From assembly GCA_043809745.1 (NCBI GenBank), contig JBDROU010000079.1, forward strand, positions 1,163 to 65,162: DNA of 64,000 bases, written 5' to 3'. Origin of the DNA: a bacterium (lineage in GTDB: Bacteria; Elusimicrobiota; JBDRMW01; JBDROU01). A program made the position numbers and the translations under genes. The notes beneath the pieces are model-generated. The model was given only the letters and a program-made list of their open reading frames with translations, was not told the origin of the DNA and made no database searches. How positions within the stretch are numbered: the stretch's first letter is position 1; each line of letters begins with the position of its first letter. Shown one piece after another: positions 26,601-54,908 of the stretch.

Positions 26601-29600
26601 GAAGAACGCTTTGCGGGCCGTTTAGACAGCGCGCTGACGATTAATGCCAAACTGGCTGAAACCAAATTTATATTCCCTTACGATACAAAGGCTCTTAATG
26701 TGCTCTATATACTGGGCAACCTTCCTTCATATGTTGATACTCAGGCAGAGGCGGTGAAGTTTGCCGCTACGGTTCAGAAGAATGTTGAGCGTATAAACTT
26801 TTCGGTGTTAAGCGATGTTTATGAGCGAGCGGATAAGACTCATTCATCCGCGCTGAAGTTTGCCGCTATGGGTATCAATTCGGATGAAAAATTCACCGAG
26901 CTGTTAACCGGCATACACAGCAACCTTATAACGATCAGCACGCTCTCAACCCCGCTTTTCGGAGCTACCGTAAAGGAGCAGCTGGATGCGGCGGAATACT
27001 TTGCGTTCAATGAAGTAACCGGCAGATCCTTCGCGCTTGCCTTAGCGGTAAGCGTTAACAAGAAATCGGAACTTCTGGAAGCCGCAGGTGTAAAAACGCT
27101 CACGCCGCATGCGGCGCTGTGGCTTGCTCTGAAGGGAATCAAGGAGGCGAAAAATAAAGCCCTGGAATTCAACAAGGATTACCTTAAAGAGCGCATCGGG
27201 TCAGGAGCGGCCTTAATGCAGAATCTGGAAAAGGGCGGTTTTGTGTTTGATGTTGAGGGCATAGAACGGACCCTTCTTTCGCTTTCATTATTGGGCTCTC
27301 TTGATGAGAATAAAACCGGTGCTTACGCAACTTCAGCGGTCATGAACCTTAACAACATACAGTCCTGGAGCATAAAATCTAAACTCAGGTTAAACCGTGA
27401 ACTTACCCAGTGGCTGGCATTGACATTCACCAATCAAAACATAACAAAACAGAGTTTATCCCAGAAGCTTGCGGAAGTTGTGCTGGGCGCAAACTTTGAG
27501 ACAGCCAACCGGGAGCTGATATTGGGGGTCGGTCTTAAAGAGAAACTCTACGCCTCGATGATATTGAGTTTTAACGATCTGAAGGGCGGCAAACTAGAAG
27601 AAGCAATCAAAGCCTGGAAATCCGAAACTAACCGCAACCAGATACTGGCATCGCTTAAAGGAATAGAGCTTGATGCGCTTCCGGGAATAATAATAGCATC
27701 CCGTGGAGTAATAACAAGCGGTAAGGGTAAAAACGAAACCTTCAAATTCAGTCCGAAACAGTTTGCGCTGGTTATCACGGCCACAGAAAAGATGATCGGT
27801 TTAACGGATGCGTTTAAGCGGGATGTTCAGGGCATAATAGATGTAAGCGGTATTGTGGTAGATATTCTGGATAAGGCTCCTAAGAATAAAGAAAAGGTTT
27901 TGGCGCTCTTTTTGAAACGGTTTGAAGGTGCTCTCGGCGTAAAGAGCGAGTTAAACGGAATAACATTCAAAAATAAACGCGAGAAATTTATTACCGCGGT
28001 GAATATCGCGCTTAATCAGGTGTTTATTGACAAGGACGGCGGCCTGAAGCTGACATTCCTTAACCGCTGTGTCAACCTTGTAAAAACAGTAAATACCGAA
28101 AGAATCTTAAATCTTAAGCAAGGCGCGTTAAGTTTTGTAGAAGAGCTTAACTATATACTTTCCGCGCTGGCTCTGGACGCAACAATCAACAATCAGCAGG
28201 TTGAAACCGTGCTGAAAAATCTGGTTAAGTTTGCTTACGATAAAAAAACAAAAGGATTTTTTGCGAATCTAAAAACAAAGTCAGGTGAAGCTGTGGATCT
28301 GCTGGACATAATGAACTATGCGAACAGTATAGCTCAGGCAGGCGGCTTCAAATGGCACGAGATTGATAATGTATCAATAGCCCAGTTCGATGCCGGCTCA
28401 AAAACAAAAGTGAAAGACATAAGCCAGATTATAGCTGTAAAAGTTTCTATAGGCGAGAAGCAAATTACGGTGCCGGTATTTAAGACAGCCAAAGGCGAAA
28501 TAAACATACTTAAAGAAGTTTCCATTGATTCTCCGCCGGTGGGCAAGCCGGCAGATGCGCTGATTACAGCGGAAGCTAACAATGTAGATCTGGGAGCCGG
28601 TGAGTATGAGGAGCTTCGTTATAGTGACGGCCAAGCAGATGGATCAGGAGTGGTGCAATCAATCGAGGAGATAGGCGAAAAAATTGAGTCTGCCATCAGG
28701 GCGCTTACTGAAGAAGCATCTCCGCATGTAACAGGAGAACAAACACCCGCGGTGAAACCAGCGGCATTTGAGGAGGATAACACTGGTATTGTGCATGCGG
28801 TATATAGCTGGTATGTATACACCGACAATCAGGGCCGCGAACACACAGTCCCTGCGGGAGATTTCGCAAAATACCTGAGATCGCTTCCTGGGATCCCTGA
28901 TGAAAACACAAGCCTTCCTTATATAAGCCAGATTAAATCAACACTGCCTGCAGAGAGCGCTGCGTTGCCGGAACTGCCAAAAATAAGCCTTACCATGCTT
29001 ATGCAGAAACTTACAGAGGCCGGGCTTAAGGATCAGAATGCTATTAACGGCATTATTGGCAATTATTCATTTATAAAAGACCGGGAAGCTGTATTCGGCA
29101 ACGATTCAGGGGAGCTTATCAGGCAGGCATACAAACTTTATTCTTTCGGCATAACACCGGAACGGAGTTTGAGGAAGTTATTTGATATCACGCTTAAGGA
29201 AGGCGGTTTTATCCGTGAAAAAGCTTCAATAGCTTTGAAAACCGGCGCGGATATGCTGATAGCCGCGAATTTCGGCATGGAAAAGGACGGATTCAGCCGC
29301 GATCTTTTTGAAAAGCTAAGCATTGTGGCGGGCACATTGCAAACAAAAATCAAGTACAAGCTTGATGACGGATTCGCAGCATACAAATTCGCTGATACGA
29401 TAGCCGCAAATCTTAAAGATCCCGGGATGCTGAACAAATTCGTTGACGGTGTATCTTCAAATTACGAGATTATAAACTCGCTCAAAGGCGTTTCGTTTAA
29501 GCCGGGAGAAGTTGAAATTCTTTCAATTATATTCGCAAGATCTAAGATTGCGAGCAAAGAGGTTGCGGCGGAACTCGCGCGCAATTATGCGATACTTGGT

Positions 29601-32600
29601 GCAAACATAAAGACTTATAAGACCAGAACAGACCAGCTTAAAGACTCGCTGAAACTGCTTCAAACCGGCATATACGGCGAAGCGTTGGAGGTGGGAGCTG
29701 CTGTATGGGCAAGCATGAGAGATACTGTTACTAAAAACGCGTATGTTGATATAAAGGATAATGTTACGGGAATCACCGCGGTTGCCTCATGTTTGGTGAG
29801 CGACAAGAAAGGCAATCTTATATTCAGTGAATCCTTATTCAAAAAAGCCAATGAACAGTTAAAATCACTCTCAGCGCTCGGGTTCGATTTCGGCCCGGAG
29901 CCTGATGCCGGATACCGCATGCTGATGACTGCAGGTAAGACACTTAAAACAGATCTGGCGCTTATAGGTGCTTTGATAAAAATTAAAGATAATTTTAAGA
30001 CAATTAAAGATATTGGTCAGGGCAAGTTTGAGGCTCAGGAAGCCGAATCGATCGCGGCGTGGCTGGTTTACGATACTCCTGAAGATGTTCGAACTTATAC
30101 AGAAGATTATCTGGTAATCAAGCAGGATAAAGAAGCCGGTAAAACCGCCGCTCAGAGGCTTTTGACATTGAAGATGTTAAGAAATCCGGGTTTGCCGTTA
30201 TCCGGTAAAAAACTTGCCGCGGCCAGAAGCGCGATGATAGAAAAGGGTGATACAGTTGGTAATATTATCGGTGTTAAGCTTGAAACCTATATAGAGAAAC
30301 TTCAGGGAGCTTCTCTCGGGTTGGTCTTGAACAAGCAGGGGGAATACGAGTTCAGCAAATCAAAGCTGACAGAGTTAACCGCTATAATAGGCGAATTAAA
30401 GGACAGCAAATTCAACTTTAATATTGAACATAAGCTAGCGGGATTTATTGTATATGAACAATGGGCTCAACAGCTGGGCAGCTATGATGCAGCACGGGGA
30501 TATTTGAAAGGTGTCAAGGATATGTTCGCTCTCGTGAAAAGCGGAAGCAAGACGGCATACAATCCCGGCGAGGCTGAAGTTATTGCCATGATGCTCGGTC
30601 AGGCGAAGGTCAGCAAAGAAGACGCGGTTTCATTGCTTAAGCTTTACGACGTACTGAGAGATACAAAAGAGCACGGCAGTACCGCGGAAGCCAGGCTCAT
30701 TTTTGCTCAGAAGATGCACAACAGCGGCATCACAGAGAAAGGGTTCAGCGCGCTGATTGCCGATATCGGTTCACAAAAAGACATGATAGCTAAAGTCATG
30801 GGAGAGATGGTTGATCCCAAAGATCTGCTGGTTATCGCATTCTGCGGTTTGAAAGAAAAAGAGCCGGGAGTATTCAAACTGGATGAAGCTCAATTCAAGA
30901 ATATAGGAAACATCGTGGTGCAGTTGAAAGCGCTCGGTTTCAGGTTTGCAGGCGATGACAGTTCGCTGGTTGCCGGATTTACTTTTGCGAACAGGCTGAT
31001 ACATTCGATGAACAGCGCTGATAAAGCGGCAAAATATCTGGACAGCGTATATGCTGTATTCAGAGAGATTTCATTAATCGGTGCAAAGTCTTTCGAAAAC
31101 GGTGAGGCTGAGGAAATCGCTTTGACGCTTGCGCAAAACGATATTGCGGAGCAAAAAGCGGTAGAAAATACATTGATTAATTACCTAATTATTAAAGACA
31201 AGCAGGAGTTCGGCGCAACGCTTACAGAGCGGCTTTCAAGCGCGCATACATTTTACAAGAAAAACATAAACGGAGCCGAGCTTAAAGCCGGGATAGAAGC
31301 CTGGATAGAACATAGGCAGTTTATCAAGGATAACGCCGGGTTTGAGATTAAGAACTCGATTGTCGGAGTTATAGCGGCTAAGGAAGGCATGACTGAAAGC
31401 AAATCCGGGGAATGGAAATTTTCCGAAGACACATTCCTCTCTAATTTGAAACTAATCGAACCGGTCGCGGAAGAAACGCTTGAACGCAAAATACTTGAAC
31501 AAGCCGGTATTTTAAGAGACATGCTGAAAGAAAAGGGCATCACAGGATTAGGGCTTCGTGAGACAATCTCATTGATGCAGGACGGTGAGGTTAAAGGCGC
31601 GGCGCTGACGCCGGAGCAGATCCAGCAGAAAATTATGTCGATGCGCCGGGTTGCCGAAAGCAATCAGATGAAAGCTCTAACCCAAACAGCCACAGCGGGG
31701 ATGAGCGAAGAAAAAGCTGCTATCTTCCGGATGGATATAGTAAGGAATATGAAGGTAGATTGGCTTAAGGTATCGGACTCGGATATAAAATTGAAGAGAA
31801 TCAGCTACGGCGGCGCCAAACTATACCTGGCAGAGATAACGCTTACCGTAGACAACAAAGAGTTTGTGGTGAACCGTGTTGCTGCAGGCGACAAAATTAT
31901 AACGGTTGATCTGGACGGCAAAAGACTCTCGGAGATATTCAGCACAGTAGAATTCGCCACTGCCTACAGTGATATATTAAATACGCTGACCGAATACATA
32001 AACGCCGATCAGGATATTGAGTCAATAAGGCTTGCCGGCGGCAGGGTAATCAGCCGTGGCGATATAAGTGTGAATGCCTTTGAACTTGCACTGCAGAAAG
32101 TAATCAGCGGTAAAGCGGAGCTTAAGCAATCGGTTTATTTATACAAGATGAAGGACGACGCTGACAAGAGTTCGCACCAGAGCATGAGGATTTTCTATAC
32201 CTCCGATTCCGAAAAGAAATCAAATGAAACCTGCACCGTAACATTCAGGTTCGATGCGGACGGAAATCTTATAAACTCCGAACCCGAGATAAGAAGCAGC
32301 GAGTCCAGGTCGCCTCCGTTTGTTGCGGCTCTCAAAAAAGCGGTAGAGCAGTTAAAGAACAACGAGAATGCCTCTATAAACAAGAAATCCTTTAAGATAA
32401 TCCTTGCTAAGATGGAAGGGCCTAAAGAGAAAATCCCGGTGATGTTTAGTATTAAGAACGGCAAGAGAATGCTGTTTATGCTGGACCGCGGTGTAGAACT
32501 TCCGGGAGTAATGGTATATGAAGAGGCAGCAGCAAAGAGCAAAACAGGAAAGACGATAACGTATCTCCAGCAGATATTCGGTATGGATAAGAATAATCTT

Positions 32601-35600
32601 ATTGAATTTAAGAACGACACGCTTATCGTTTCCAAGCTTGATGAAAACGGTAAAGCGCAGATATACTCCTCAACGAAGGTAAAGCGGGATGCTTCAGGGT
32701 TGATTACCCATGTTGCCGTAGAGTATTCCGAAGCTGGGATATATATGATCGGTAAAGATATGCATCCGATTGCCGTTAAAACTATTGAATGGGATCTTAC
32801 GGGTAAATCGCCGACTCTAAAGATAAACGGTTCTAAAGTTGAGGGCGCGGGTAAAGATTCATTTTCAAGTATGCTGAGAATGTTTGGTAAACGAGCTGAA
32901 TTTTATGAGATAGGCAGCGGAATGGTAAACGGAGTAATGGATAAAGATGAAACAAAGGTTCAATTCGGTTTTATCAATGATGTTAACGGAGGCCAGTTTG
33001 ATGCTGTAATTTTCGATAAATCGGGCATGAGTTTAACAAGGTCTTTTGATCCGCTGGGCAGTGAGTTAGCCAAAAAGGTGTTGAAAGACAGTTCGGGTAC
33101 AAAACATACGCTGAGTTTCTTTGACATAAATAATCCGGTATCAGAGATCGGTTTGAGGATTATGAAAGCTGCGGACAGGTTTTGCGATAATGAGTTTAGT
33201 GAATATGATGAAGCTGAAATGCCGATTTCCAGTGAATTCATGCAAGCCATAGACCGACAGCAGCAGTACCTGAAAGAATCGCTTGATTCAATGTTCGATG
33301 AAAATGCCGCATCCAGTGAAGCTGCATTTTCCAAGCTCTTGATTTGCGCGAAACTTCAATCCGTATTGGATGTGCTGGGGCAGAAAGAAACTGTTGAGGG
33401 GCTTGCTTCAATCACAAACAAGGACGGCAGGTTCTACCCGCTTGCGCTGGTTGATCATTACGAGAAGCTGATCAACAAAGACAATCTTAAAAAACTTACA
33501 AGCAGCACCGTTGCGGGCTTGGATGCGTTAAGGGCAGGCTACAGCCTAAAGCAGGAATCAAAGAACCATAAGGAGTTCTCAGCAGGGGCGAACCGTTTAG
33601 AGAAGGATATAGAGAACTATATTGAGCTTATACCGGGCTGGATGAAAAGCAAGAATCCCGAGATTACCGAAGAGATGGGTAAAATCAGTGAAAAGATATC
33701 TATGGGCGAGCTTGCCATATCCATGAAAGAAAAGGCGGTGAACCTTACCGCCAAAGAATGCGCTAAAGCGGGTATTTTAACAGTTTACAACGGATTTGCG
33801 GAGCTTGCCGAGAGAGGATATGCAAATTATGCGGCAGGCAAAGACGAAGCCGCATCTGTACAGCTGGGAGAAGCCAAGAAGTATTTCGCTGTGATAAATC
33901 TCTTTACCGGTTCACAGCAGTCGGTGGATAAAGAGAAAGCAAAGAATTTGGGCATAGACGCATTCCTGAGAATAACAGACGAGAAAGCCGAAGAAGCGAA
34001 AGCGCTTGCTCTTGCCGGCGATATAGCGGCCGCGTATCAACTGGCGGAGTATCTCAAGGGCAGATACGAGGTAGCTGCCAATATGCTTAAGAACAACGAT
34101 AACCAAAAGAAGCTGCCTAAAATGACCGATTTAGAACAAACCCTATTTAGGGAAAGCACCCGTGAAAACTATCACGCTTACGCTGCATATGTTTCGCTTA
34201 ACCGCGAGATCGCGGAAACCAGCTTGCACAAAGCGGGCGAGGATGTAAGGTTCCTTACCCAAATAGCAAGCATTAAAGACCAGAAAGCCAAAATAAACGA
34301 GAAGCTGGCTGAACTCAAAAAAGATAAAGCAAAGCACGATAAAAAAATTGAAGATCTGAATCAACAGATAAGGGAGCTTGAAGCCCAGGCCAATGTCCGA
34401 ACCCAGTCAGATCTGGCAATATTGGAGGGCAGTAAACGGGATTTCCGCACAGCTCCTCAGGAAAAGCTGAAAAAGGCTAAGAATATCGAAACCGAAATTA
34501 AAAATGAAGAAAGATACAGTAAGGAATGCGTGGAATCGATATCAGAGTGCGGAAAGGCAAAGATTGCCGCAGAAAATGCGGAAATACGCATAGCAGACGG
34601 CATGATCGATGAAGCGTCAGATTATTCCAGAAAAGCAACCGCCAGAATGCGGGTGGTGAGCATGATTGAAAAAGTAAAACGGTTTATCAGTAATAACAAA
34701 GTACCTAAGGAAGTTGTAGCCGGGTTGAAGCCTGAACAAATATTCGAGAAGTATTATGATGATGTTATAAGAATGGCGAATGAAGCGAAGTTTAATTACA
34801 TGCTGGCAAGTGAAAAATCATCCGATGAATATGAATATAAGAAGTACATGGAAAAAGCAGAAGGGTTCGACCAGGCCAGCGTAATAGCCGAGATAGTCGG
34901 CGACCACAGGAAAAATCTTGTAAAGAAAATCAAAAATACCGATCAGGTCAAGATAAATAGATATCAGGAAGAGCTGAAAGTGCTGGAGGCAAAATTAGCG
35001 GACATGAAAACCGTTCCTAAAAACGGCATACGCAGTTTATCCAAGAAGTTGTCATCCGATGATGAAAGAGTAACCTCAGCTAAAGAAAGTGCGCTGAAAC
35101 AACAGATTGAAGTTGTAAGAAGGAAAATTACCAATGAGAAAAATAATCCTTTGTACGGCCAGAACGGCAAGAGAAGTGAGACCAACAGAGCCTTCATGCT
35201 GCTGGGCGAGCAGTCACTTAAAAACGACGAACTGTACGAATGGGAGAAAGCGGCAAAGAATTCGGATATAGTGCCGGATCTGGAACAATCTGATTTCTTC
35301 AAGACAGCATTAACAAAGAGTTTCGAAGAAAACCAGGAATTAACAAAAGATTCCGCTTTATTGCGCGACGCTTTAACGCAGGAGTTTAACAGAATGCTTG
35401 CCAACCCGGCCGAAAACGGGCTTACAGAAAACGCTCAATCGCTCTTCAACGATCTTACGGAAGCAGTGGACAGAGGTACGGCGCTTCATATATTCAGCAG
35501 TGTTATCGGGTTTGCGGAAAAATTACGCGCAGGTACGAGTAATTGCGGTACGCGTGAGTTTTCAGCCAAAGAAGATCCTTTAGACAGCCTGACCCATGTG

Positions 35601-38600
35601 CTCTACAAATATATTTACGATAAAAATGATATTGGCAAGATAGTTGATCTGGTGGTTGATAAATCAGAAAGCAGGCTTAAAGGGTTCAGCATTCTCACCG
35701 CTGACGGGAAAAAGGCAAAAGCTGAAATCGTATATGAGAAAGATCAGCTGTCATACATACATTTCAGGAATGATGAAGAGATTTCTGCAATTATAAACGG
35801 TCAGAAAGTGGATAACCTATTCAGGGATTCTAAGGTGCGGTTTGTGAGCGGTTACAGCGCTCAGGCAGGTCAGATAAACGGCACGCTCTGGGAGGTTAAA
35901 GGCGCAGACGGCAAGTTAACTCTTATCCATCAGGGAGATGTGTTCAATGACAAGGAATATAATACGGATACCGGCGAAAAAACGCCGCAGATATTTCAAT
36001 TTACTGCCAAAGGTTCCCTGCAAGAAAACGGGGATATAGACTGGAGTTTGGGTAACAGTCAAACTGAAATAGATGCGGTGAGTTACTACGACAAGAAATG
36101 GAAAGTTGTTAAGGACTTAAGCAAGGCCGATAATAATCTTGTAAATAGAATCGCAGGAGAAAGAAAGTTAAAAGACATTGTAATTTACAATATAGTTGCC
36201 ATAGAACAGGAAGCTAAAATACAAGAAAAAGATAAAACCCAAGCACATGGTATTTATAAATCTAAAGGATTCGATTCAGACAAGATGCAAAAGCGGATAA
36301 AACAATTACGTGAATTTACATCTCCTAATGAAAGTAGGGTTGCCCAAATAATTGTAGGATTTGAATCTGAAAGTAAAGAACAGCAGAACGGCATGGTTGT
36401 TGCAGTAACACCGGTTATAACCATGCAGTGCAATGGCAGCGGGGAAGGCGAATTCCGTCAGATATACGAAAAAGACGGTGTTAAACAGGAGATGGTGGAT
36501 CCGGGCATGATCAACCGCGCTTGGTCATGGCTGGGAGATAAAATGGGCATGGAAACTACTGCCTGGGAACCGGTTCCTCAAAATGAAGGCGCTATGGCGG
36601 ACATATTGACCTGGTTCAAATTGGGTGTTGTTTGGGCTGTTGACGGCGGTGGAACAACCAGTAAATGGAAGCTGAATGAGTGGGACCGGATGATGCACAA
36701 GGAGCATTCGTTCGGATTTTTAGGTAAATGGACGGTTCCCCAGATAGCCTTCTGGACTGAAGTTGTAGTAACGGTAGCAACAATTGGCACGGGTGCGGTT
36801 GTCACAGGCTTGAGAAGGGGCTTTCTGTGGGCGCTTAGGACTGCGGGCGTAAAAAAGGCAGAGAAATCGATTTTATCGAGTTCGCTTGAATGGCTTGAAA
36901 CCCGTGAATTGGCACACAAACTTGCAGAACAAACAATTAAAAGCTGGGGTAAAGAGAATATAGCGAGTTTTACTGATGAATTTATCGCAAGGCATGCTAA
37001 AACGGTTGCACAACGAACTGCTATTAAAGGTCAGGAAGAAGTATTGGAAAAACTTCTAAAGAAAAGGTTGACAAAATGGGTTAAACGTCAGGCAGCAATC
37101 ATGTCATTGACCAGCGGCGGCGGCGGTGCTCTTGAGTCGGTGATGGGGTTTGCAAGAAACGGCATCAAGCCTAAACTGCTGAATCCGCTCCAGCAGGCAT
37201 GGGGTACCGCAAAGTTCATGGGTTATAAATTCAGCAGAGGCCTTATAGTAAAAGATTTCGCTCATTTTACCGCGACTTTTGCTATATACAACGCAGGGAT
37301 ATCGCTTATAGAACGCATGGCATACGGCGCCAGGTTTGATAAAGACAAGAACAGGGCTCTAACCCTGTTTGAACAGCTCGGAGCTGATGCCAAACTGGGT
37401 GTTGAACAGGCGCTAACTATGGGCCCGGTTCTCTTGCTCTTAGGCCCGTTTGTATCGCCATATGCATCGAAAATACTCTCATCAACATTGGAAAGAGTAG
37501 GCGCGAGTAAAGTAATAGGTATTAGTCGTGTTGCTAAAAGTATTTCCACAAGCGGTACGCTGGTATTCGGTGAAGAGGGGTTGCTCTCAACCTGGGGTAA
37601 GATGCTGGAAAGAAAAACAATAACAGCAGACATCGGGAAAATGCTTAGAGCAGTTGGAAAAGGGGCCGGTGATCACAGTCTGGCATCGGTTTCAACTTAC
37701 GAAGGTTTGTTCGGTTTTATGGAAATTACAGTTAGAGTTACCCAGAAAGCATTGGAAAAAGGACTGCATGTTAATGAATGGGCGGCAGAGATGATCTCGC
37801 TTTTTGTCAGCCCTCAGACTTTTAAGGGTATGGGCAATCCGATGAGCCTTAAAAATATCAGACAGCTCTCAGAGATCGGCAAACTTTCCGGTGAACAGCA
37901 GAGGGAGCTTCTGGTAGCCGCTAAAGAAGTAAAGATGATTTTCGAAAGTAATGACTGCAAAGTTATTGCCAGAGAGCTGGATTCGATGATAAGGAAAATA
38001 GATAAAGAGCTTGCTTCCGCTGAAATTAAGGAAGAGCCGGTGCTTTCGGAATCACAGAAAAAATCGATTGAAACATTAGCCCAGAACACCCCCAACAAGG
38101 AAATCGGCCTGACAGGTGAATTGGGGAGAGAAATAGCGTCTGTGTTGGTAAGTCCCCGTGCGGAAGGTGTAGTCCGCTTGCCTGTAAAACCGAAGTCGGA
38201 GGCTGTAACAGAGGGCGAAGCAGTTAAAGCTAAAGATGCAAAAGTCATCTCAATCTACAAGAAGGCCGGAGAAGCAGAAATAGCAGCCGAAAAGACAGCC
38301 GAAAAGACAGCTGAAAAGACAGCCGAACCGACAGCTGAACCAATAGTTGAGCAGACAGCTGAACAGGCAGCCGAATTAGCTGCTAAAATGCATGAAACTA
38401 CGGAAGCGCCATCAGGGGAAAAAGTGATTAAGTTAAGCCAGGATGTTCCCAGAAAACCTACACAGGGCGGTAAGAAAGCTGTAATAAGTTTAGAAGGAAG
38501 GGGCAGCAGGCCTGAGAGAGCAGAAACACCGCCGCAGGAGACGAAGGAAACATTAAAACAGGAATCTTCTGTACAACTTGAACCAGCTTTGGATGCTGAG

Positions 38601-41600
38601 CCTGTGCAGCCTAAACGCGGGGAAGTTGTAAAGCCCGAACAATTTAAGAGAACCGTTGAAGGGCAGACTGAATCACAAAAGGGTAAGCGGAGTACGGTAA
38701 GCGAAGTTAAGGATGTTTTGGAAAGTACTCTGACGGCTGAGCAGTCAGGCAAACCGGATGCTGACATTATACCTGAGGAAAGGCTTCAGAAAAAAAGGGA
38801 GCGAATAGCGGACCGTGAAGCAGAGAAGGAATCCAAAACGGCAGAACCCCATGAGATGGAAACACAAACAGATCGGGATCAGCAAGCGCATGAGTACAAG
38901 AAACAGCTGGATGAGGCATTAAACAAGGCAGAGGTTGCGGATTTCATAGAGAAGATGGGTCTCAAAAACAGCGTTACTGAAGGATTAAAACAAGATGCGT
39001 TCAAAACGGTGCAATCACTGGTAACTGTGCTGAATAACAGGATGATAACTGATCCCGCGCAGATGGATGCAAAAAATCTGAAAGATCTTGCAGAAGGTAT
39101 AAACCTGCTTTACCAGGCTGTTGCCCAGCTCAAAGGCGTCAACCCGGGTGAAGCCGCAGAGATGTTCCGTATGCTCTCTGAACGCACCAACGATCTTTTG
39201 AAATCTTTCGAGTCGCTTGCCAACAGTTTCCTTGGCAAATACAGCAAACAAGAATACAGGATATCGGATACAACGGAGCTTAAAAAGGAAGAAGCTGAAC
39301 TGGCGGAGATATTCCAGAAGCTTACCCAAATAACGCAGATCTCTCAATCAGGAGATATAAGCTACAGCGGCGCTGTAAAGAATAAGGTCGGAAAAACCTA
39401 TACTGATATAGTATTGAGCATTACCAGAGCCGAACAATCGGCACAGAGTATTTATAATGTTTCTTTGAGGCTGGAAATAGCCAAAACTGCCGCGCTGTCA
39501 GGCCTCGTACCTGAATTTATGCTCAAAAAAATAAGCAAAGGTGACGGGAAAGGAGTATCATTCAACATAAACAGTGAAATTGGTTTGGATGGGGAATTGA
39601 GACGTTACAAAAATGAAATTCTGGAGGAAGCCAGATGGATTGAAAATCTGGAACAATGGGCTGATGTTAAAGAGCCATTTCTTGCAGATTTACATAATAA
39701 AATTCAGATTATACTTGATTCTTTCGGTCAGCAGGGTCTTCTTTCTACCGGCAGGGCCCGCGAAATAATGGATATGCTTGACGCGTATTATAACGCTTAT
39801 GAAAAAGTATACTCAAACACGCCGCAGGATATGATCAAAGTTATTAAAAATGCTTTAGACAGCTATGATAAGGTTTTAGATATGGCAGTTGTTAGCAGAT
39901 TTACAGCACCGATAGCCAAAGAAGCAGCAGTAAAAGTAGACGGATTATTCAAACGCTTCAACGAGATTCTGAAAGATGGTAGAAATAATGTACAAACAGT
40001 TGAAGCTGAAGCTGTTTTGGATACGGCGCTTTCTGTTGTGACAAGATTCCGCAGCAGAGATATAAAAATGTCCAAGTTCGAGAATGTTGTCGAATTTTTG
40101 GATACACTTGTGAGCAACACAGAACATGTTGATTCTCTTATTGAAGGAGCAACTAGCGTCGAAGCCGCGAAACAGCTAGTGTCCATTGTGGCAAAAGTGC
40201 AGACAGCAGTACAGAATTTAAGCCCCGATAAAGTCGGCAAAAGAGTTGATACCTGGGTAAGAAGCATAGCAGAAAAGCTAAACTCCAATGATGCGCCGTT
40301 AACCAGCAAAATAGCGGCTCTTCTTATAATACCGGATAAAGCATCAATAGAAAAGCTTCTGCCTGAAATCCTTAAAGATACGAAACAAACAAGAGATTTA
40401 ATCGAACTTTTAAGTTCACCGGACACATTTGTAGAACAGTTAAAATGCCTGACTATTATAAGATTAGTTGAAAGAAGCGGTATTTCTGAAAGCCAGTTAT
40501 CTAGGTTATACAATAATATTAGTGGAGCTGAACGGTCAAAAGTAAACGAGAATGTTGCTCTTCTGAATGTAAAAATTGTTGTATTAAAATCCAATATTAA
40601 AGCCAGGATGGGAATTTCTCTGCATGATGCTATCACTTTCAAGGATGGCAGCATAATAATAACAAACACCAGAGGTGTTGAACATGTTATAGCCAATGAC
40701 AGCATTATGGGGCCTTGTCTGCTCGAAGCGCTTAAGCCGGAAGCTACGCTCTATGAGATACTTAGCAAACAATTTGGAGAAAAATTGGGAAAAATATTGG
40801 AAGAAATGGGCTTTACTACTCCGGAAGATATGGCATTGCTGGAAGCAACATCATTTGAAAGTGTAGTAAACGGCTCTGCAAATATCAAAAATGGTCGTAA
40901 CATAACAACAATAGAAGAAGCAGTTAAATTCATACAAGAAGGCATTAAGCAGAATAATGCTCAGATGTTTGTTGAAGGTAACGCGGCATTTAGCCGGCTG
41001 GTGCTGAATAATGAAGAATACGCGAAGAAATTCAAGAATTTGACGGATCGATGTCTTAAGGAAACCAACCTGGAATTTGAGATATTTAGCTTAATAGATC
41101 AGGTTGGTAAAGTATATCCGACATTGGCAAATAAGTTTGATTCTGCTGACGAAGCTTGGTTTAAGGCAAATATAATTGAACCAATAAATAGAGTGATAGA
41201 CAGCCTTAAGAAAGAAGAGAAATATTCTGAGATTAAAGAAGAACTTCAGCTTTTCGGCGATTCACTGCAAAAGATGATAAAGTTTCATTATGAGAATAGA
41301 GTTGGAGAAAATGAGATTAGGAATTTCCAAGAACTGCAAACAAATGCGGAGAATGTTTTAAAGGAAATAAATATCGCAGTGAATAATTTTGAAACAAGGC
41401 TAAAAACAAGCCGCTCTGCTCAAAATCCGGATGTTATTTTACTTAATGAACTCCTGAATTTTGCGGCAGACAGCGTAAAGGTTGCGGTTAATGGAATGCT
41501 TAAGGGCAATCTTGAAAATTCGAAGGCTCTCTTGGAAAAAGATGTAAAACTTTATGAATTGGCATTAGAAAAGAAAAAAATACCTAAGAAAACTATATCG

Positions 41601-44600
41601 CAGAAAAAGAAACCATCTTCTAAGAAAATTCAAAGAAGAATTATTCGTAAGCAAAAACAAAGATACTTGGAAGCTGAGGAACAAATCAAAGTAAAGTCTA
41701 GTAGCGAAATAAATAGTGCCAGAGAACAACTGAAGGAAAACAGTAAATTGAATAGCTTGATCAAAGACGCGAGAAAGAGCATAGATAAGCTAATGCCCGG
41801 TGTTGAAAGTAAACGCGCTGAACTGGAACAGAAAAGATTGGAAATTTCAAAACAGCAGCTTATTGGAGAGTTGTTAGCAAAAGGAGGTACACTTCCTTCA
41901 TTTGTACTGGACAGCGTGATAAAATATGAAATATATCTTGCAGAAAAGCGGGAGCTCAAGAGTTACAGAGAAGCATTTAAGGTTGATCCACCAAAAGATG
42001 AAAATGGTAATTTATTTACGGTTGAATTTAAGGATCCTGCTTCAGCAAATGATCCGCTGCTTGTTCAAATAAGAGATGTAATAAATAAAGTACTCGTTGA
42101 CAGAGGACAGAAGTTTGAGAAATTCCCGTTATTAGAGAATCAACCGGATCAGATTTTAGATATGCTGTTCGGTTCAAACGTAGCCTATGAGTTCGGGACC
42201 GGAGGTGGAAAAACTTCGATAATAATGAATTATGTTAATGCTTTGCGCTGGGAACTTTTCTGTAAAGAAAATGGCCCGCTTGCCCATAAAGGCTACCAGC
42301 GCGGTGTAAGCTTATTCACTTCGGATATAAAATCGCATGAGGCATATGAGAAATATAAAGAACGGCTCTGCAGGTTAATGGATATTAAGACAGATTCTCC
42401 ATTAGTGTTCAGGTTGGATCAGGAAGCTATGGATAATGCCAGAACCGATCCGGAATGGCTGGTTGCAAAGATTAAAAATGCCAAGCTTGTTTTGATAGAT
42501 CAGATAGGGTTCCAGTTTATAAAGCACGGTGAATGGTCCAGAGACGGTGTGACTCAGTTCGGCGGCAGGGAAGGCTACAGGCTGTTAACAGAGAGAGTAC
42601 ATTTTATTTTTGACGAGTTCCAGTCCGCGATACTGGAGAAAACTTCCGCGATAGTCGGCGGCGAGGGCAGCCCCAACTCGCCTGCTATCCAGATGGCAGG
42701 CAGGTATGTGCATCGGGCCATTGAAGATATAATATTTAATCAAAGTGATTTTATAAAGTCATTAACCGATGCTGATAAGGCAATTTTTGAAAATGAGTTA
42801 GGCGAGCTTAGAGTGTTGAAGAATGATATGGAAAAGGGATCAGCATCTGCAAGTATAAAAGCAAGGAAAGAATATGTGAATAAGCAGCAGGCATTCTTAA
42901 AGAAATACTGTATGGATACCAATAAGGGTTCCTTAAAGAATGAATTCAAGGAAAAAGTAGACGAAGTAGCAAATTCATTATTAGGAGTACGTCCGGAACT
43001 ATTGGGAGCACATCCAGAACTGAAATCCCTTATGAAAACAGGGGGATCAAATGAATTGTCCGGCGAGTATAATTGGATACACAGGGAACAGCATAAGAAA
43101 GATTCAACATTAAGCGAAGCTGAGATATACAAGAAAATACAAAACGAAATTAGGGCGTCGATCAATGCCCGCGACAATGTATTGAAATTTACGGATGAGA
43201 ACTATTATGTGGAGTTTGAAGGCCAGGAAGGCAAGTCTGAGGTTACTGCTGAACACCGTAATATACCCATACCCAACCATGGTGGACCCTCACCTAATAT
43301 GAGATGGGCTGATTCATATATGTCGGTTGCGCTCTACTTCCACGCGACAGCCGAAGTAAGAGCCAGGAATGCAGAGCTTAACAAGATGCGCACCAGCCCG
43401 GAATCTCTGCAGGCGACCATGGGTACTGTTTTTGCTGATATGCTCAGGAGAGGCAGTTTCGGCTCCGGTATGACCGGTACGCTTCAGAATGTTATGATGG
43501 CAAGCGAGATCGGATTTTACTTTGAATCAATCGCGATGGGGGATATGGCAGGCAGGTATCTGGGCCCGCGCAGGAATGCGATAGAAAATGCTTTCGCTTA
43601 TACAGATAAAGATGGAATGTTCAGCGCGCTTGAAAATTATTTAACCGCACCTGTGGAAGGATCTGAAGCTGTAGACGGTGTAGTGGTAGGTGTTACGAGG
43701 CAGTACGGTCAGGGTGAGCAAAGGGCTCAGTTGGAAGCATCTGGAGCATTCAGGGACAGGATGCAATTAAAGCAAAACGATGCTAATAATTTTGTGCTTA
43801 CTGTGCGCGAAAACGGCAAGTCGGTTGAGATTAACAAGACATGGGTGGAAAGGCAGAATTTAAGCGATTCAGCACAAGCTGAATTAATGGAGCTTTTTAA
43901 TGCAGGAGGAGAAACCATTAATCCTAATGCGCTGGAGAAGATTTTAATAAGAGATAGGCTGGTTGATGTGCTATCCAAAGAGGGTCCGGAATCCAAGCTC
44001 AAAGGGGAAGATCTTGCGATAGCCAGGTTGTTCAGCATGGAAGGATTAAAGGATAAAAAGATGCTGGTTTATATTAACAAGGAAGGCAGTGTCGGAACCG
44101 ACATGTTCGTGCCGGAGGGAGTTAAGTTTGCGCTGCTTACTGATGTTAATGTTACTTTAACTGATATTGTTCAAGCATGGGGCCGCTCAAGAGGAATCTT
44201 CCTATTTGAATCAGAAGGATCAGCTAAAGGGAAATCATATGCTCCGATACTTCATGAAATGAATACGTTTGTATTCGACTTAAACAACGAGCTGAATATG
44301 GAAAACGGCAAAAAGTTCACTCCAAAAGATTTTATGAGAATGCTCAGGACAAATGAGCTTAAAGACTGCCAGCAGAATGTGTTTAATACATACCGCGATG
44401 CGATTCATCAATCTGTATCAAACATGTTTGCTCTTATGCTTGATGTGCCCGGCTTGAGCAATGCTGACCGGAATCTCATACTGGATAGGATGCAACAGCA
44501 TCAAAGCAACAAGACGAAATCGGATAAATTGGAAAGCTCTATGGGTGATCCTCTGGAGGTGTTGATAGAAACGGCAAATGCGACCAGTGAATTCTTGAGG

Positions 44601-47600
44601 AACCTTGGCAATAACGATGCCCAGTTCAAAGATATGATAAACAGAAACAGCGAGAGCAAGCGAATTTATGACTACTGCGTGAATCCGGAAGGGAAAGATT
44701 TTGATATATCAGACTTTATGGTTACTCAAGCCGGCAATAACAGCCTGAATGCCAGTGCGCTGCAGAATGTACTCTTTGTAATGCAGGCGGGTATATTCGG
44801 TATGGCAAAGGTTGGGGATATAATAGCCGTGGCCAGGCAGTATATTCCGAGGTCGCTCCTGCCGGAGAAGGTTTCAAAAGGCAGATCGGCTGAGGCTGAA
44901 ATAAATACTATAGCTGATGGAAGAAATACCGTTAATACCGATGCGGGTCGAGAGAAATATGATAAGGCTATGCAAAAGATGCCAAGAGATTTAAAAAGAA
45001 AGGTGTTTGGCACTGAAAGCCCGACTCCGGATTCGTTGTTAACGGCGTACGGCCGAAGTTTTGTAGCCAATGCTGTTGCGGCTATAAATCTAGCCAACAC
45101 CGAAATAGAAATTCTGGATCAAGATGATAATCCAATTTCCTATAATGACGAAATGCTTGAATCCGCCGTTAAATATGCGGCGGCAATCGGAGCGGATGTT
45201 ATAGGTGATGATGGAACGCCAATCACCGCACCTCTTGTCGCAACCGATGAGGATTCCGTACCGCTTGTTAGTGCTGCTAGAGACTCTGCTAAAGTGCAGG
45301 TTATACCCGAAGATCATGATACAGGCGATAAGGTAACCGAAGGTTTTGTTGATGATATTCAGACCGGCCAACCTGAAAGAACTACTCCAGTGGTTATACC
45401 CGAAGATCAAGACACATTAACCGGTAGTACTGTATCTTCAGATTCAATCGAAGCTGAAGAAGGGTTTGAGCCCGGATATGTGTATGCTAGGGCACTAAGG
45501 AATAATGCAAATAATATAACAGTGGTTGCTGAAACGCTTGCTGATGAGGGTATAGATTTTGAAGCAGCCATGGTGGTAGGCTCTTCGTTGTATGACTTAG
45601 GAGGGCTCACTCGTTCCAACAGCAAAGATCTTGCTCAACTGGGCAACAAGGTTCAGCGTAACAGAAATATGAGTAAGCAGGCAAAGAAAGAAAAAGGTAA
45701 AGATGCCGATCAACAACAGAAATCTTTGCGAGTTAAAACACAAGATCAAATAGCAACGTACATAGAAGATCATAAACTTACTGGCGGTATGGATAAACAG
45801 GAAAAGAAACAAATAAACAGATATAGATCAATAAAGAACAGCTACGATAAAGGCCAAGAATTGTCGAATAGGTTGCAGCAAACGCCGCCTGATTTGCAGG
45901 GGTTATTTAGCTCAATAAGGAATGGGTTAAGAAAAATAGGACTGGCAATAAGGACAGCGATACAAGCTTTCAATATTAAGAGGATTGAACGCTCGATTCA
46001 AAACACTTCTGTGGCTCAATTCGAGCTTGAGAAGCTTGATAATGAAAAACACCGTCAGAAGACATTCTCCTGGATTGTAAGGCTTAATCCGCTGATGTCA
46101 TTCGATAGACTTAAAGATCTTTCAATACGGCTTCGTTCAGAGAGCGAAAATGCCGCTTTGACGCAGGTTACCGCAGGAGCCTTTGAATCATATAATAAAA
46201 ATGGAAGCTTCAGCGGAAATATTACTTCCAGAAGCATGCTCTATGCTGCAGCTCAAAAGATTGACCTGAACAAGATTTTCGGCAAGCTGAAGAGCAAGCA
46301 TAATCTGATCAACAGATTGTATAAACAGATAAGGAAGATTGATCTTACAAAAGCCTTCATATTCAGCAACAGCAGAAATGATACTGTAGCAAGGGTTCTG
46401 CAGCCGGGAACAACAGAGAAAGAGGCGCAGGCGCTGTTGAACGCGAATGTATTCAAGAAGAGAAAAATATTACGCTTGCAGGATCGGCTGCTGTCGCAGA
46501 AAAAAGCGGATGAACTGCAGAAACTGAGCACAGAAATTGATACCGCGCGCGCCGCCATCGCGCAGGTTGAACAAAAGCTTGGTAAGGCTTTAGAGAAACT
46601 GAATAAAGGATTTGGCACAACTACCAATGATCCCGAATACGCTGTCAGGCAGATTAAGAAAAGCAACCGTTATTGGGACATAAAAGCGCGTCTTCAGATG
46701 AGAGCAGAAAATCCCAACGCTAAGATAACCGAACCTGAGCGAAAAGAGTTAACGGAGATGAGATCGCTTTATGATTCTGTGGCATCGCTGGAAACCCTTG
46801 TTGCCGAATACCGTAAACATACCGCTGAACTTCAGAAAAAAGCGGACATAAAGACCGCCATAACGGGCAATATAAATAAGGATATTGAGAAATATGCTGA
46901 GGTTTTGGATGAAGATGGATCTTTAATTGTTCTTCAGACGCGCATCGCACAGGCTAAGTCGAAGAAAGTTCCTATAACCGTAAAAGCGCTCAAAGATATG
47001 GTAGATGAAAGCAACAGATTCTCGACCACTCGTACTGCGGGTTCACCGCTTACACTTGCCGATGCGTTAATTCTTATAGACAAAAACAATGGTACGTATC
47101 ATCTCCCGAAGAATGATAGTGGTGACCGCAAGAGTTTTGCTGAGGTCGTGGAGTGGATGGGAGAAGAATTCGGTGAGAAAGTAGACGAAATTTCAGCTGC
47201 GGATGCGGTTAGTGTAGCCCGGGCGCTTTACGAGATGGGTGAGACTCCGGCCGAAAGAAGTAATGTAAAACTTTCCGAATTCTGGCGTATAATGAAACGC
47301 GCCGGTGCGGCAGGCGATGAAACCAGGCTAAAAGCGGTGGTTGCCGCGCTTGGGTATGACGGAGCGTTATTTGATGCTCTGCCTGCAGATGTAACCTATT
47401 ACAGGACTACTGGACGCGGTTCAAAGTTTGTAGATTCCACTGTTGGAGGGACGCTGTATGATCTTGCTGAGGGCAATATTTCAGAGATACTTAACCCGCA
47501 GAATTATGATGAATCAGAACGAGCTGGAGTAATGAAAAAACTAATCAAATACGCTGATACACTTAAAGATAAATTTGTTGCGGTATCAGCCGGCAAACAG

Positions 47601-50600
47601 GAAGGCGGCACAAATCAATTGAGAAACCAGCTGGAGTCGGTTCTGAGTATCACAGCTGATAAAGCCAATCTGGAACTGCTTGAAGCAGGAGATAAAGAAA
47701 AAGTATCTTCGATATTAGCCAAACTTGCAGTTAACGATATAGATCAGGGGAAGAGCCTGGAAGAAACTTTGGGCATGATGGATTCCTGGTCAGAAAAGCT
47801 GAATGCCGCTCCGGCTGAAGAAAAAGCGCTCTTGGAATCTGTCAGAAAAGAACTTACCGTGAAGGAGAAGAGCGAGTCTGTGGCGCACTTAAATGCCGCG
47901 AAGGCCGTTGACGATAGGATAGAGGCCATTATAGAGCAGGAAAAAATCTCTGAATCCATGCCTTCTATAAGAACCCGGTTGACAAAAACATTTGAAACCA
48001 GGCTGGAGGTTATAAGGCATGCGGAGAATATGAGTGTGGAAAGCGCCTTGGCCGAAATAAACGTGATTATTGATGATATACAGGAAGAAGCAGAGTTGCT
48101 GGGGAGCAGCTCAAAAGCCCTTCTGACTGATGCATATATGTATAAGTTCTTTGTAACTGAGCAGATTATACAAGATTATGAAAAATATTTCGAATCAGAT
48201 GTAGCTTTACAGTACGCGCATCATAACCGGGAGTTCAGGAAGTTGTTGTCCTTAGACGGGTATAAAGAATACAAAGAGCACTATCAGCAGAAAGTAAACG
48301 AGCTTAGACAGTTAAACCGCAGCGGTTTTGAAACCATTAGGCTATTGTTGAAACTGGATCCTTCGATTGCAAGCAGGCTTAAGGATCAAACAAAATTCCT
48401 GGAATTCCTTAAAACATCCTATAAACATGATACAGATACCGCTAACAGGATGCGCTATATATACTATGGATTTGGGTTGATTGAAAGCTTAAAATCCTCA
48501 GAATTGAAACAAAAATATACAGATGAGTTTGAAACATTACTGAGAAATAACCGTTTGGGTATAGCTATGTATTTGAATGAGCAGCTAGGTGACGATATGT
48601 ACAGAGTGGAAAGTAAGAATCTGGAACCTTTGGCTGCCGCGCATATGATAATAAGCGATGATAAGAGTAATAATGAAGAAATAGTGAAACTGGTGCGTGA
48701 TGAGTTCAGAGATGATGCAAAAAGGCGGTTTGCAGAAAGGGAGTTGCAGCACATACCTGGCAGGAATGATGTGCTCCCGCCGACTGCAGTAAAAGAGACA
48801 AAGAATGAATTAACCGTGCGAATGAAGAAAGTAACGCTTCTTAAAGAAACAATTATTGCCATGGCTGATGCAAACGATATAGAAGGCATCGAACAGCTGC
48901 TGGTGCAGACGGTAGAGCTTTACAATGAGTTGTGGGAGCGCGGGTATGCGCCTCATTTTGAAGGTGCGGATGCAAATGGGAAAGTGTCACAATCCATTGA
49001 CGATATAATGATAAACATCGGTACGCTTGAGGATGAACTGCTTCATATAGACCCGCTGAACTTTACGCAGGACGCGAAGTTAGCTCAGCAGCTTATGCCG
49101 AAACTTGCCAAGAAGATGCTGAACGATGTTGCCAGACATCTGCCTAAACCGATGGATGAGAAGGTTGTTAAGAAGTTAGAGAAAAAGCTGGAGGAAGCGG
49201 TAAAGGCGCGGTTTGCGGTCAATAAATGGAATACCGCGCTGGTTGATTCAAAGAATTTGGATGATTTTGAAACCGGATTAGAAGCTGTGCTGGAGTCCGC
49301 GTCCACGAATGATGTTTATAGTATAGATGTACTGGAAAACATAGCTCAGCAGACCCCTGTGAGAAGCTTTATACAGGCGCTGAACAAAATGAAGCTCAGA
49401 GGCGGTGTGAGCATAAGAATAAATGTGATCGGTGATGATGAAATTGACAGCCGCGACGAATCGAGGATACTGATCACCAATAACAAGGAGCACGCATCGC
49501 TTGCCAAAACGCTGTTTGTTGATGAGGGTGATGATCAGAATCAACTCACTGGCAAATTCGGCCAGCTGATTTTGCTCGGCGTAACGTTAACTCAGTATTT
49601 TAATGAAATAAAAACCGGTACTTTTAACAACAGCAACAGAACAAGGCTGCAGAAACAATTTTCACTTCTGGCGAAAAACATTGCCGCGCTGCCTGACAAT
49701 GAAATAAACGAACTTTATAATCAAAGCAAAGATGCCGCGAAGGGCATCAGCGTGCCTCTGCCCGCCTGGAAGGAAGGAGAAACCAGGATAACTGTTGAGT
49801 CGGTGAATCAACCGCGAGCAGCTCAGCTGGTTCAAGAATCCAAGCGTTTGTTGCGCGGCCGGGTCCCGGATATGAAGCAGAAAACAGAGGGGAACCGCAT
49901 GATGGTGCGGGTAAGAAGTGTTGAGCAGCCGCTCGGTAAAGCGATTCTTAATGATATCAACAGTAAGAAGTCAGTGGAAGCAAAGGTGCAGCTCAAAATC
50001 GATGAGGTTATGCGCTTGCTTGCCGATTTGTGGAACCTGGGAGGATACATACCTGAGCCTGTGGCAGACGTTAAGGGATATTATCTCATGGATAGGATAG
50101 GGATGCTGGAAGGCAAAATGGTGTATGCAGATCCTATGAGTTTAACCAATGATGAGACAAGAACAGGAGATATTAAGAACCAGCTTGCAAAAGCAATAGT
50201 TTCTGATCTGGAAAAGTATCTGAATGCGAGTAAAGTTGATAAAAAACTGGCAAAGAAAATAACCAACGGCCTTGAAAAGAAAATTAATACTCAAATAAAT
50301 AAAACGTTCGGATTTGAGCATGAACAGTGGAACGATCTTGACACATACACAATCTATGTTATCCAAAGCGTAGCTGAAACGCCAGGTATTAAAGAAGTGA
50401 TAGATTCGATAAATCAGGGTGAAGATTCAAGGATAGACAATAACGTAAAGTTAGAAGTCATAGATAAAGAAGCAAAATGGGACAGCAGAAAGGTGCTCAT
50501 AACGGACAATAAGGAATTTGAACAGTTGGGTAAAGCATTGGTGATTGACACTAAAACTGATGTGCTGATGCTGGAAAAAGAGTTCAGTTCCATAGTGATG

Positions 50601-54775: not shown

Positions 54776-54790
54776 ATTACTTCCTATAAA

Positions 54791-54804
54791 TACTAATATT
54801 AGTA
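54791..54804. promoter_or_regulatory. perfect 14-bp palindrome TACTAATATTAGTA immediately upstream of the abiEi SD: candidate AbiEi autoregulatory operator
   Basis: tactaat|attagta is self-complementary. It is positioned 8-20 nt upstream of the RBS. Confidence 0.45.
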
Positions 54805-54908
54805 CTTTCAAGAAGTATATTATATATAATATGGCTGTTTGTCAAGTGGAAAATGTAAAATTTATTAGCAGTAGAGATATTCTAAAATTAGAGCAAAATT
54901 AGCATATC

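Follow-up and report, generated by a model that had tools for sequence, protein, structure and literature searches.

A Trp-rich basic module with one candidate transmembrane helix in a giant YD-like repeat protein from an Elusimicrobiota genome

Giant proteins have been described in Omnitrophota and other bacteria (West-Roberts et al., 2023, bioRxiv 10.1101/2023.11.21.568195; Nielsen and Lui, 2026, bioRxiv 10.64898/2026.06.07.730766). Those of Omnitrophota are described as having a long N-terminal part free of transmembrane (TM) segments, followed by TM anchors and an intracellular C-terminal part (West-Roberts et al., 2023), and the TM predictions made for such proteins have been called unreliable by the authors themselves (West-Roberts et al., 2023; Nielsen and Lui, 2026). 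The subject of the present analysis is a Trp-rich basic module, containing a single TM-competent segment (S1), in a giant protein encoded on a stretch of 64,000 nt from a bacterium of the Elusimicrobiota (hereafter the window; positions 1,163 to 65,162 of contig JBDROU010000079.1, GenBank assembly GCA_043809745.1). Giant bacterial proteins are routinely credited with 'numerous transmembrane helices', and their predicted localization and function depend on those calls. The lesson drawn here is that most TM calls in a protein of 17,000 residues are no more than the false positives to be expected of soluble proteins, and that the one segment worth testing is picked out by the basic residues that flank it, by its aromatic belt and by the anomalous composition of its surroundings.

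Like the giant proteins of the Omnitrophota type, the protein is the product of a single open reading frame (ORF) exceeding 10,000 aa, has a unique sequence and is for the most part 'dark' to Pfam, and it has a long TM-free N-terminal part with binding-type domains, followed by one or more predicted TM segments and a further long C-terminal part. Unlike the Archaeovorin/Dockerin-type proteins, it contains no SecA_DEAD, dockerin, TSP3, C39/S8 peptidase or enzyme domains detectable by Pfam over the whole ORF, and it has at most one or two credible TM helices where theirs are 'numerous'; nor is there any detectable sequence similarity. Judged by its sequence, the protein resembles the described giant bacterial proteins in kind, but none of their domains recurs in it and no relatives of it are detectable.

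A second point of comparison is provided by the Rhs/YD-repeat proteins, represented by Escherichia coli RhsA, the TcB/TcC protein YenB/RHS2 (PDB 5kis), the Rhs protein of a type VI secretion system (PDB 8qja) and Bacillus subtilis WapA. The N-terminal repeats of the giant protein have in common with these the recurrent YxYDxxGR(L) motifs and a hydrophilic composition rich in Ser, Thr, Asn and Tyr, and a sheet of long antiparallel beta-hairpins, predicted here, may be shared as well. However, the repeat unit is ~181 aa with sub-units of ~45 aa, compared with ~20 aa for the canonical YD repeat, and the repeats extend over at least 5,800 aa, with ~10,500 aa after them.

Two further systems are relevant to the module itself. 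The anchoring proposed below would resemble that of Staphylococcus aureus Ebh and related giant surface proteins of Gram-positive bacteria. Ebh is a giant, largely alpha-helical extracellular protein with FIVAR/GA/DUF1542 repeats, in which a membrane-spanning segment and then a positive cytoplasmic stretch form an anchor near the C-terminus; in the protein considered here FIVAR, GA and DUF1542 are not detected, and ~4,700 aa follow the candidate helix. In class I viral fusion proteins, exemplified by the membrane-proximal external region (MPER) of HIV-1 gp41, a cluster of Trp residues is followed directly by a TM helix in which Gly and small residues abound, and this in turn by basic residues. 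The Trp cluster of the giant protein likewise precedes S1 and then basic residues, although this is an analogy of sequence pattern only, since the cluster is spread over ~100 residues instead of ~20 and there is neither a heptad-repeat fusion core nor homology.

Composition and hydropathy of the module

The giant ORF occupies nt 3..50855 of the forward strand and comprises at least 16,950 codons without a stop; residues are numbered such that residue F begins at nt 3F of the window. The three apolar segments (S1, S2 and S3, Table 1) and the Trp-rich patch noted in a preliminary description of the locus are all in frame within this ORF, ~72% along the part of the protein visible in the window. 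The patch, which was said to lie just upstream of the segments, does so, beginning at nt 36519, slightly 5′ of the region first delimited and directly before the most TM-competent of the segments. It forms part of the densest Trp window of the giant protein, which has 10 Trp in a stretch of 108 aa and 12 in one of 150 aa, the background being 0.66% (Bonferroni-corrected binomial p about 8e-6). Compared with the alpha-rich part of the protein, residues 12166-12492 are enriched in Trp (z = 5) and lie in the top 0.3% for the fraction of apolar residues plus Gly, and they carry a net charge of +6 per 100 aa in a protein that is acidic elsewhere. Five of the 17 peaks detected in the whole giant protein with the Goldman-Engelman-Steitz (GES) scale fall within residues 12127-12489. 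Residues 12166-12492 are therefore a real, compositionally distinct module. No internal paralogue of it was found, hydrophobic cluster 1 and cluster 3 included. The possibility that the segments are products of small genes in other frames or on the opposite strand was rejected, as only short spurious ORFs occur there.

Hydropathy was assessed with four re-implemented classical scales and controls, namely Kyte-Doolittle (KD; 19-residue window), Wimley-White octanol, the position-specific apparent insertion free energy of Hessa and von Heijne (dGapp, or dG) and a GES/TopPred-type trapezoid. In the dGapp checks the length term was ~0 at 19 residues, glycophorin A gave -2.1 and LacY a minimum of -2.8, and LacZ and RhsA had no window of 2 or less. 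S1 has a dGapp of -0.42 kcal/mol (residues 12254-12276), the only window at or below zero in the giant protein, together with a GES/TopPred-like score of 1.47, an Eisenberg mean hydrophobicity (<H>) of 0.64 and a low hydrophobic moment (muH 0.18). An evident signal peptide in the 886-aa protein encoded nearby has an h-region with a matching dGapp (-0.43), and among the controls the weaker of the real TM helices cover a range that includes the value of S1 (YijD, -0.84 to +0.41). The scales disagree on the module region as a whole, with one helix by dGapp, two 'certain' ones by GES/TopPred and none by KD at 1.6, and the outcome that would have refuted the preliminary description (no TM helix assigned here) is neither established nor dismissed by them.

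Of the three segments, which had each been described as about 20 apolar residues, S1 fits best, its quoted peptide having 23 residues with one Glu. S2 contains Glu, Arg, Asn and Tyr, fails on every scale (KD below 1.2, dGapp 2.8, GES 0.83) and is amphipathic by its hydrophobic moment (muH 0.34); it is very improbable that S2 is a TM helix. S3 is marginal, with a dGapp of 1.95, a KD peak of 1.44, a GES score of 1.70 and three prolines, and its dGapp is no better than those of segments of the soluble Ldh and UvdE proteins encoded in the same window (1.9 and 1.8); that it spans a membrane is possible, though doubtful. Hydrophobic cluster 1, correctly placed ~5,800 residues away, has the highest KD peak of the giant protein (1.96), yet its dGapp is 1.5.

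The flanks of S1 set it apart from the other segments. Aromatic residues mark both of its ends (W12251 and W12276, 25 residues apart), and the charges are +2/-1 upstream and +5/0 in the 15 residues following L12270 (RRGFLWALRTAGVKK). Flanks this basic make up only 0.7% of the 15-aa windows in the alpha-rich part, and a net charge of +4 or more was absent from the flanks of all 20 false positives taken from soluble E. coli proteins. The 199-residue loop between S1 and S3 has a net charge of +15, which places it in the top ~2%, 200-residue windows of the giant protein averaging -5.6 (standard deviation 8.3). S1 alone among the segments combines a positive-inside charge bias with an aromatic belt; the flanks of S3 are unfit for an in-to-out helix (+1/-3 in the 15 residues upstream, +2/-1 downstream). 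A stop-transfer helix is classically recognized by interfacial aromatics, an apolar core and a positive flank on the cytoplasmic side, in that order, and this is the arrangement at S1.

Proposed membrane anchoring and competing explanations

The reading preferred here, to which we give about an even chance on the strength of the sequence, is that of a membrane-interaction module with one TM-competent helix, S1, likely oriented with its N-side out and its C-side in, which would anchor a giant and probably surface-exposed YD-like repeat protein. The Trp-rich 80 residues ahead of S1 would lie on the outer membrane interface and S1 would stop transfer and anchor the chain, W12251 and W12276 each occupying one of the two interfaces, while the RRGFLWALRTAGVKK flank and the loop of net +15 would be kept in the cytoplasm in keeping with the positive-inside rule. 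The result would be that the N-terminal part of more than 12,000 residues (YD-like repeats, trefoil, linker and alpha-rich domains) is tethered to the cytoplasmic membrane of the producer. It is from the observed sequence features and their statistics that we infer membrane insertion, orientation and extracellular location. Cys is scarce along the whole giant protein (0.14-0.28%) in comparison with neighbouring proteins (0.89%), and this depletion fits an extracytoplasmic protein. Were S1 a true anchor, the topology of a large orphan protein would be fixed, about 12,000 aa being extracellular and up to about 4,700 aa lying either in the cell or in a loop back to the outside, and the module would represent a defined 330-residue fragment for experiments.

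Several points weigh against this reading, and a number of them favour the explanation that the module plays no part at a membrane and that S1 and S3, together with the weaker peaks, form the buried core (strands with Gly-rich loops, or helices) of a soluble domain whose Trp-rich basic composition serves, for example, glycan, cell-wall or nucleic-acid binding. The KD peak of S1 (1.59) falls just below the classical cut-off of 1.6, its charge-free core has only 17 residues between E12253 and R12271, and its richness in Val, Thr and Gly, including a turn-like IGTG motif, would suit a buried beta strand and Gly loop equally well; S3 for its part has the three prolines mentioned above. Validation of the dGapp constants is limited to the controls. 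When the giant protein was shuffled in blocks of 50-400 residues, 19-25 windows with a dG of 2 or less were obtained as against 7 in the real sequence, and 11-15 windows with a KD of at least 1.6 as against 2, and its minimum dG was equalled in 64-81% of block shuffles; the same depletion of apolar windows relative to shuffles is seen in soluble controls and is not seen in LacY. A soluble reference of 12,447 aa of well-known E. coli proteins that are not located in the inner membrane gave 1, 4 and 12 windows at dG values of 0, 1 and 2 or less, respectively (0.8, 3.2 and 9.6 per 10,000 aa), from which 1.4, 5.4 and 16 would be expected over 16,950 aa, and the giant protein has 1, 1 and 6-7. Similarly, a GES scan detected 9 'certain' peaks where ~19 were expected from the soluble set, so that by both measures TM-like windows are no denser in the giant protein than false positives are in soluble proteins. 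The soluble proteins BirA (-0.18) and ThiC (0.14) have dGapp values about as good as that of S1, and the GES maxima of ThiC (2.03), BirA (1.71) and ThiE (1.67) compare with 1.6-2.1 for the true helices of SecE and YijD; clustered peaks are also shown by soluble proteins of Rossmann type (ThiF, 3 in 251 aa). From three calibrations it follows that hydropathy alone proves no segment to be transmembrane. Composition is alike on the two sides of the module, with 0.28% and 0.22% Cys, and since the depletion is equal on both sides of S1 it provides a weak argument against a cytoplasmic location of the C-terminal 4,700 aa, and would suit a hairpin or the absence of any TM helix. The N-terminus, and hence any signal peptide, lies beyond the window, a single-sequence AlphaFold2 (AF2) model of the module was uninformative (pLDDT 35), and a search with 600 aa of the module region against 5.8 billion protein clusters (word-indexed) returned no homologue. 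Because the features of S1 were gathered post hoc, no formal joint probability is attached to them. What the soluble-core explanation leaves without a common cause is the coincidence, at one place in the protein, of the best dG, the densest Trp cluster (p ~1e-5), Trp at both ends of the segment, the +5/0 flank and the loop of net +15, and we consider it a serious alternative with somewhat less than an even chance of being correct.

The same marginal hydrophobicity (dG -0.4 to 2) would be expected of segments that also exist in water, and has been considered in terms of conditional insertion, where S1, with or without S3, would be shielded while a released toxin-like or contact-dependent giant protein is soluble and would insert once the cationic Trp-rich patch has bound an anionic target membrane. 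Hydrophobic regions of this type are known from large clostridial toxins, as are Trp-rich pre-TM regions from viral fusion proteins, and a cationic, Trp-rich composition is typical of membrane-active sequences; the N-terminal YD-like repeats belong to a class typical of polymorphic toxins and contact-dependent systems, and the similar composition on both sides of the module is likewise compatible with such a role. Nevertheless, no Rhs core or DPxGL motif, toxin domain or secretion-system gene was found in the window, S1 and S3 are 200 residues apart and form no tight hairpin, and insertion into a target membrane and into that of the producer are not distinguished by the present data, and we regard conditional insertion as quite unlikely. 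A bolder proposal, which we think unlikely, is that the module, instead of being a passive anchor, is dedicated to engaging the membrane of another cell by means of an MPER-like interfacial wedge and an insertable Gly/Thr-zipper helix, borne on a surface protein of at least 17,000 aa that is an orphan in sequence and whose N-terminal ~5,800 aa would form a previously undescribed sheet of 181-aa YD-like repeats. Least probable, and in our view very unlikely, is the polytopic bundle implied by the preliminary description, with at least three helices here and four to six when cluster 1 is included. Four GES peaks of 0.6 or more do occur between residues 12250 and 12489 (1.47, 1.06, 0.83 and 1.70), and marginal helices are encountered in polytopic proteins. 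However, the candidates in the middle have dGapp values of 4.3, 2.35 and 2.8, S2 contains both Glu and Arg and is amphipathic, the stretches between the candidates are long and highly charged, and such scores are common among soluble controls. With S2 failing, S3 marginal and cluster 1 reaching a dG of only 1.5, the estimate of at least four to six candidate spans is unsupported, because TM-like windows are fewer than in shuffles of the protein itself and no more numerous than in soluble E. coli proteins.

Architecture and relatives of the giant protein

The reading frame is open at nt 3 without a stop, and the giant gene therefore runs off the 5′ end of the window; a start at nt 234 (listed as 234..50855, 16,873 aa) is an artefact of the window edge. 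Given a contig of 66,777 bp, at most ~2.8 kb of the gene (about 925 codons) is missing 5′ of the window. Composition and self-comparison divide the protein into two parts (Table 1), of which residues 1 to ~6420 are rich in Ser, Thr, Asn and Tyr and poor in Pro, whereas the alpha-type part is 37-43% apolar and 25-35% charged and is essentially non-repetitive. The two are separated by a linker of 560 residues located directly after hydrophobic cluster 1. With this protein come a new family of long-period YD-like repeats and about 9,700 aa of alpha-type sequence lacking detectable relatives.

Table 1. Features of the giant protein and of the genes downstream (aa, amino acids; nt, window coordinates; HMM, hidden Markov model).
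Feature	Residues	nt	Strand	Basis or remarks
YD-like repeats, ~40 copies of ~181-aa beta unit	4-5827	12..17483	+	Iterated HMM
Fascin/FRG1-like beta-trefoil	~4531-4654	13593..13964	+	Pfam PF06229 4.6e-9, PF06268 6.6e-9; PDB 7zoh_A 2e-7
Hydrophobic cluster 1	6420-6553	19260..19661	+	Hydropathy; straight after last YD-like unit
Low-complexity linker, P/S/E/K-rich	6641-7200	19923..21602	+	Composition
Alpha-helix-type part, about 9,750 aa		21603..50852	+	Composition; no family, PDB or homologue match
Internal duplication	9792-9946 vs 10324-10478	29376-29840 vs 30972-31436	+	~25% identity
Trp cluster, 12 W in 150 aa	12166-12315	36498..36947	+	W count; contains the Trp-rich patch
Trp-rich patch	12173-12217	36519-36653	+	In frame
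S1, IAFWTEVVVTVATIGTGAVVTGLRRGFLW	12248-12276	36744..36830	+	Single TM-competent segment; quoted peptide IAFWTEVVVTVATIGTGAVVTGL, residues 12248-12270
Basic flank and loop	12271-12469	36813..37409	+	First 15 aa +5/0; 199 aa with K+R 34, D+E 19
S2, FAIYNAGISLIERMAYGA (FAIYN segment)	12426-12443	37278..37331	+	Not TM-like
S3, ALTMGPVLLLLGPFVSPYASKIL (MGPVLLLLGPF run)		37410..37478	+	Marginally hydrophobic; quoted peptide MGPVLLLLGPFVSPYASKIL, residues 12473-12492, nt 37419
Internal duplication	16258-16500 vs 16621-16842	48774-49502 vs 49863-50528	+	~25% identity
Two tandem paralogous macro-domain proteins		50944-51888, 52019-52954	-	51% identical, each with unassigned ~145-aa N-terminal part; directly 3′ of giant gene, convergent
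AbiEii nucleotidyltransferase toxin gene		53392-54811	-	Start overlapped by 219-aa ORF without Pfam match
660-aa protein		55513-57495	-	N-terminal signal-peptide-like segment; no Pfam match; divergent partner of 886-aa gene
886-aa protein		57722-60382	+	N-terminal signal-peptide-like segment; C-terminal adenosine-deaminase-like domain

The consensus of the ~181-aa repeat carries YDxxGRL and YNELGQV sub-motifs. A recent internal duplication is evident in the 64-65% identity between residues 1-500 and 1410-1908 (nt 3-1502 and 4230-5726) and extends at ~42% identity through residues 501-874 and 1909-2285, other copies of the repeat being 14-36% identical. A 428-residue super-unit, modelled with the internal copies as alignment, was predicted with good confidence (pLDDT 86, pTM 0.72) to be an all-beta meander of long hairpins, and the top PDB match of the model in Foldseek was the YenB/RHS2 shell (5kis_B), at an E-value of only 1.1e-3 and a TM-score of ~0.1. 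Over the whole giant protein neither the Pfam RHS_repeat model (PF05593) nor the NCBIfam YD and Rhs-core models matched at E<=0.01, hhalign of the repeat profile with E. coli RhsA aligned only the YDxxGRL motif (probability 0.75%), and DPxG[LW], corresponding to the DPxGL autoprotease motif of the Rhs core, is found nowhere in the protein. Because these tests failed, the repeats are referred to as YD-like and are not assigned to the Rhs family. A canonical Rhs toxin architecture was ruled out, the core motif being lacking, and an RTX adhesin of a type I secretion system, an LPxTG anchor and a metalloprotease were also ruled out, none of their motifs being present in the giant protein. A profile built from 20 repeat copies found no homologue, and a metagenome scan with an alignment of two copies gave no match.

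The Fascin/FRG1 trefoil, which sits among the repeats, is the only domain of the whole giant protein that is detectable with Pfam or PDB; among PDB sequences it matches best FRG1 and a domain of 147 aa that was deposited under the name 'Glycoside hydrolase family 18' (7zoh), and it may serve to bind a glycan or a ligand. Upstream of hydrophobic cluster 1 lies the second-densest Trp window of the protein (residues 6083-6232, nt 18249-18698; 7 Trp in 150 aa), an arrangement like that at the module. The strongest Wimley-White interfacial score (-6.05 for the 19-aa window) belongs to TKWVPIPFWNLFKGFFQFV at residues 6680-6698 (nt 20040-20096). In the alpha-type half, only two internal duplications are apparent, and KKKIPKKTISQKKKPSSKKIQRRIIRKQKQR (residues ~13857-13887, nt 41570-41680) is the most positive window of the giant protein, with a net charge of +15 in 30 aa.

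Relatives of the giant protein were sought widely. For the module region, phmmer with 1,200 aa against 1.84 billion representatives, pattern and tblastn scans of genome, metagenome and viral contigs, and tblastn with 3,000 aa around the module against plasmids and phages all gave no match, and Pfam at E<=10 produced only noise (ORMDL, 0.14; Helicase_IV_N, 0.71). PHROGs, NCBIfam and PDB sequences contained no match for the module region or the alpha-type part, the junction between the end of the YD-like repeats and cluster 1 had no homologue, and the N- and C-terminal 3,000 aa of the visible protein found no match in plasmids by tblastn. The giant protein failed, however, to retrieve itself from the protein sets, even though its neighbours are present in a collection of 15 billion proteins; the sets that can be searched thus seem to lack proteins that are very long or partial, other giant proteins may be under-represented in them too, and any conclusion that a giant gene has no homologue is weakened by this absence. 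An Rfam scan gave no match within the giant gene. The gene has a GC content of 41-47% and a strong purine excess on the coding strand, with local dips to ~36-37% GC at 16-18 kb and 40-42 kb, in comparison with mostly 33-38% downstream (40% in one 2-kb window), a difference that may reflect amino-acid bias or foreign origin.

Neighbouring genes

The genes 3′ of the giant gene correspond exactly to proteins of an NCBI metagenome-assembled genome (MAG), MFH1283493.1 to MFH1283503.1 (locus tags ABII27_075xx), all of which form singleton clusters. In addition to those listed in Table 1, they encode a thioesterase, an NAD(P)H oxidoreductase, Ldh, UvdE and two tRNAs, and no secretion-system gene is found among the genes of the window. 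The 219-aa ORF that overlaps the start of the AbiEii gene is probably the AbiEi antitoxin, and the pair suggests a variable or defence-type neighbourhood. The only confirmed match of the Ldh protein in species-representative genomes is from an Anaerolineales MAG (46% identical). The 886-aa product would be unusual as an exported deaminase-like protein.

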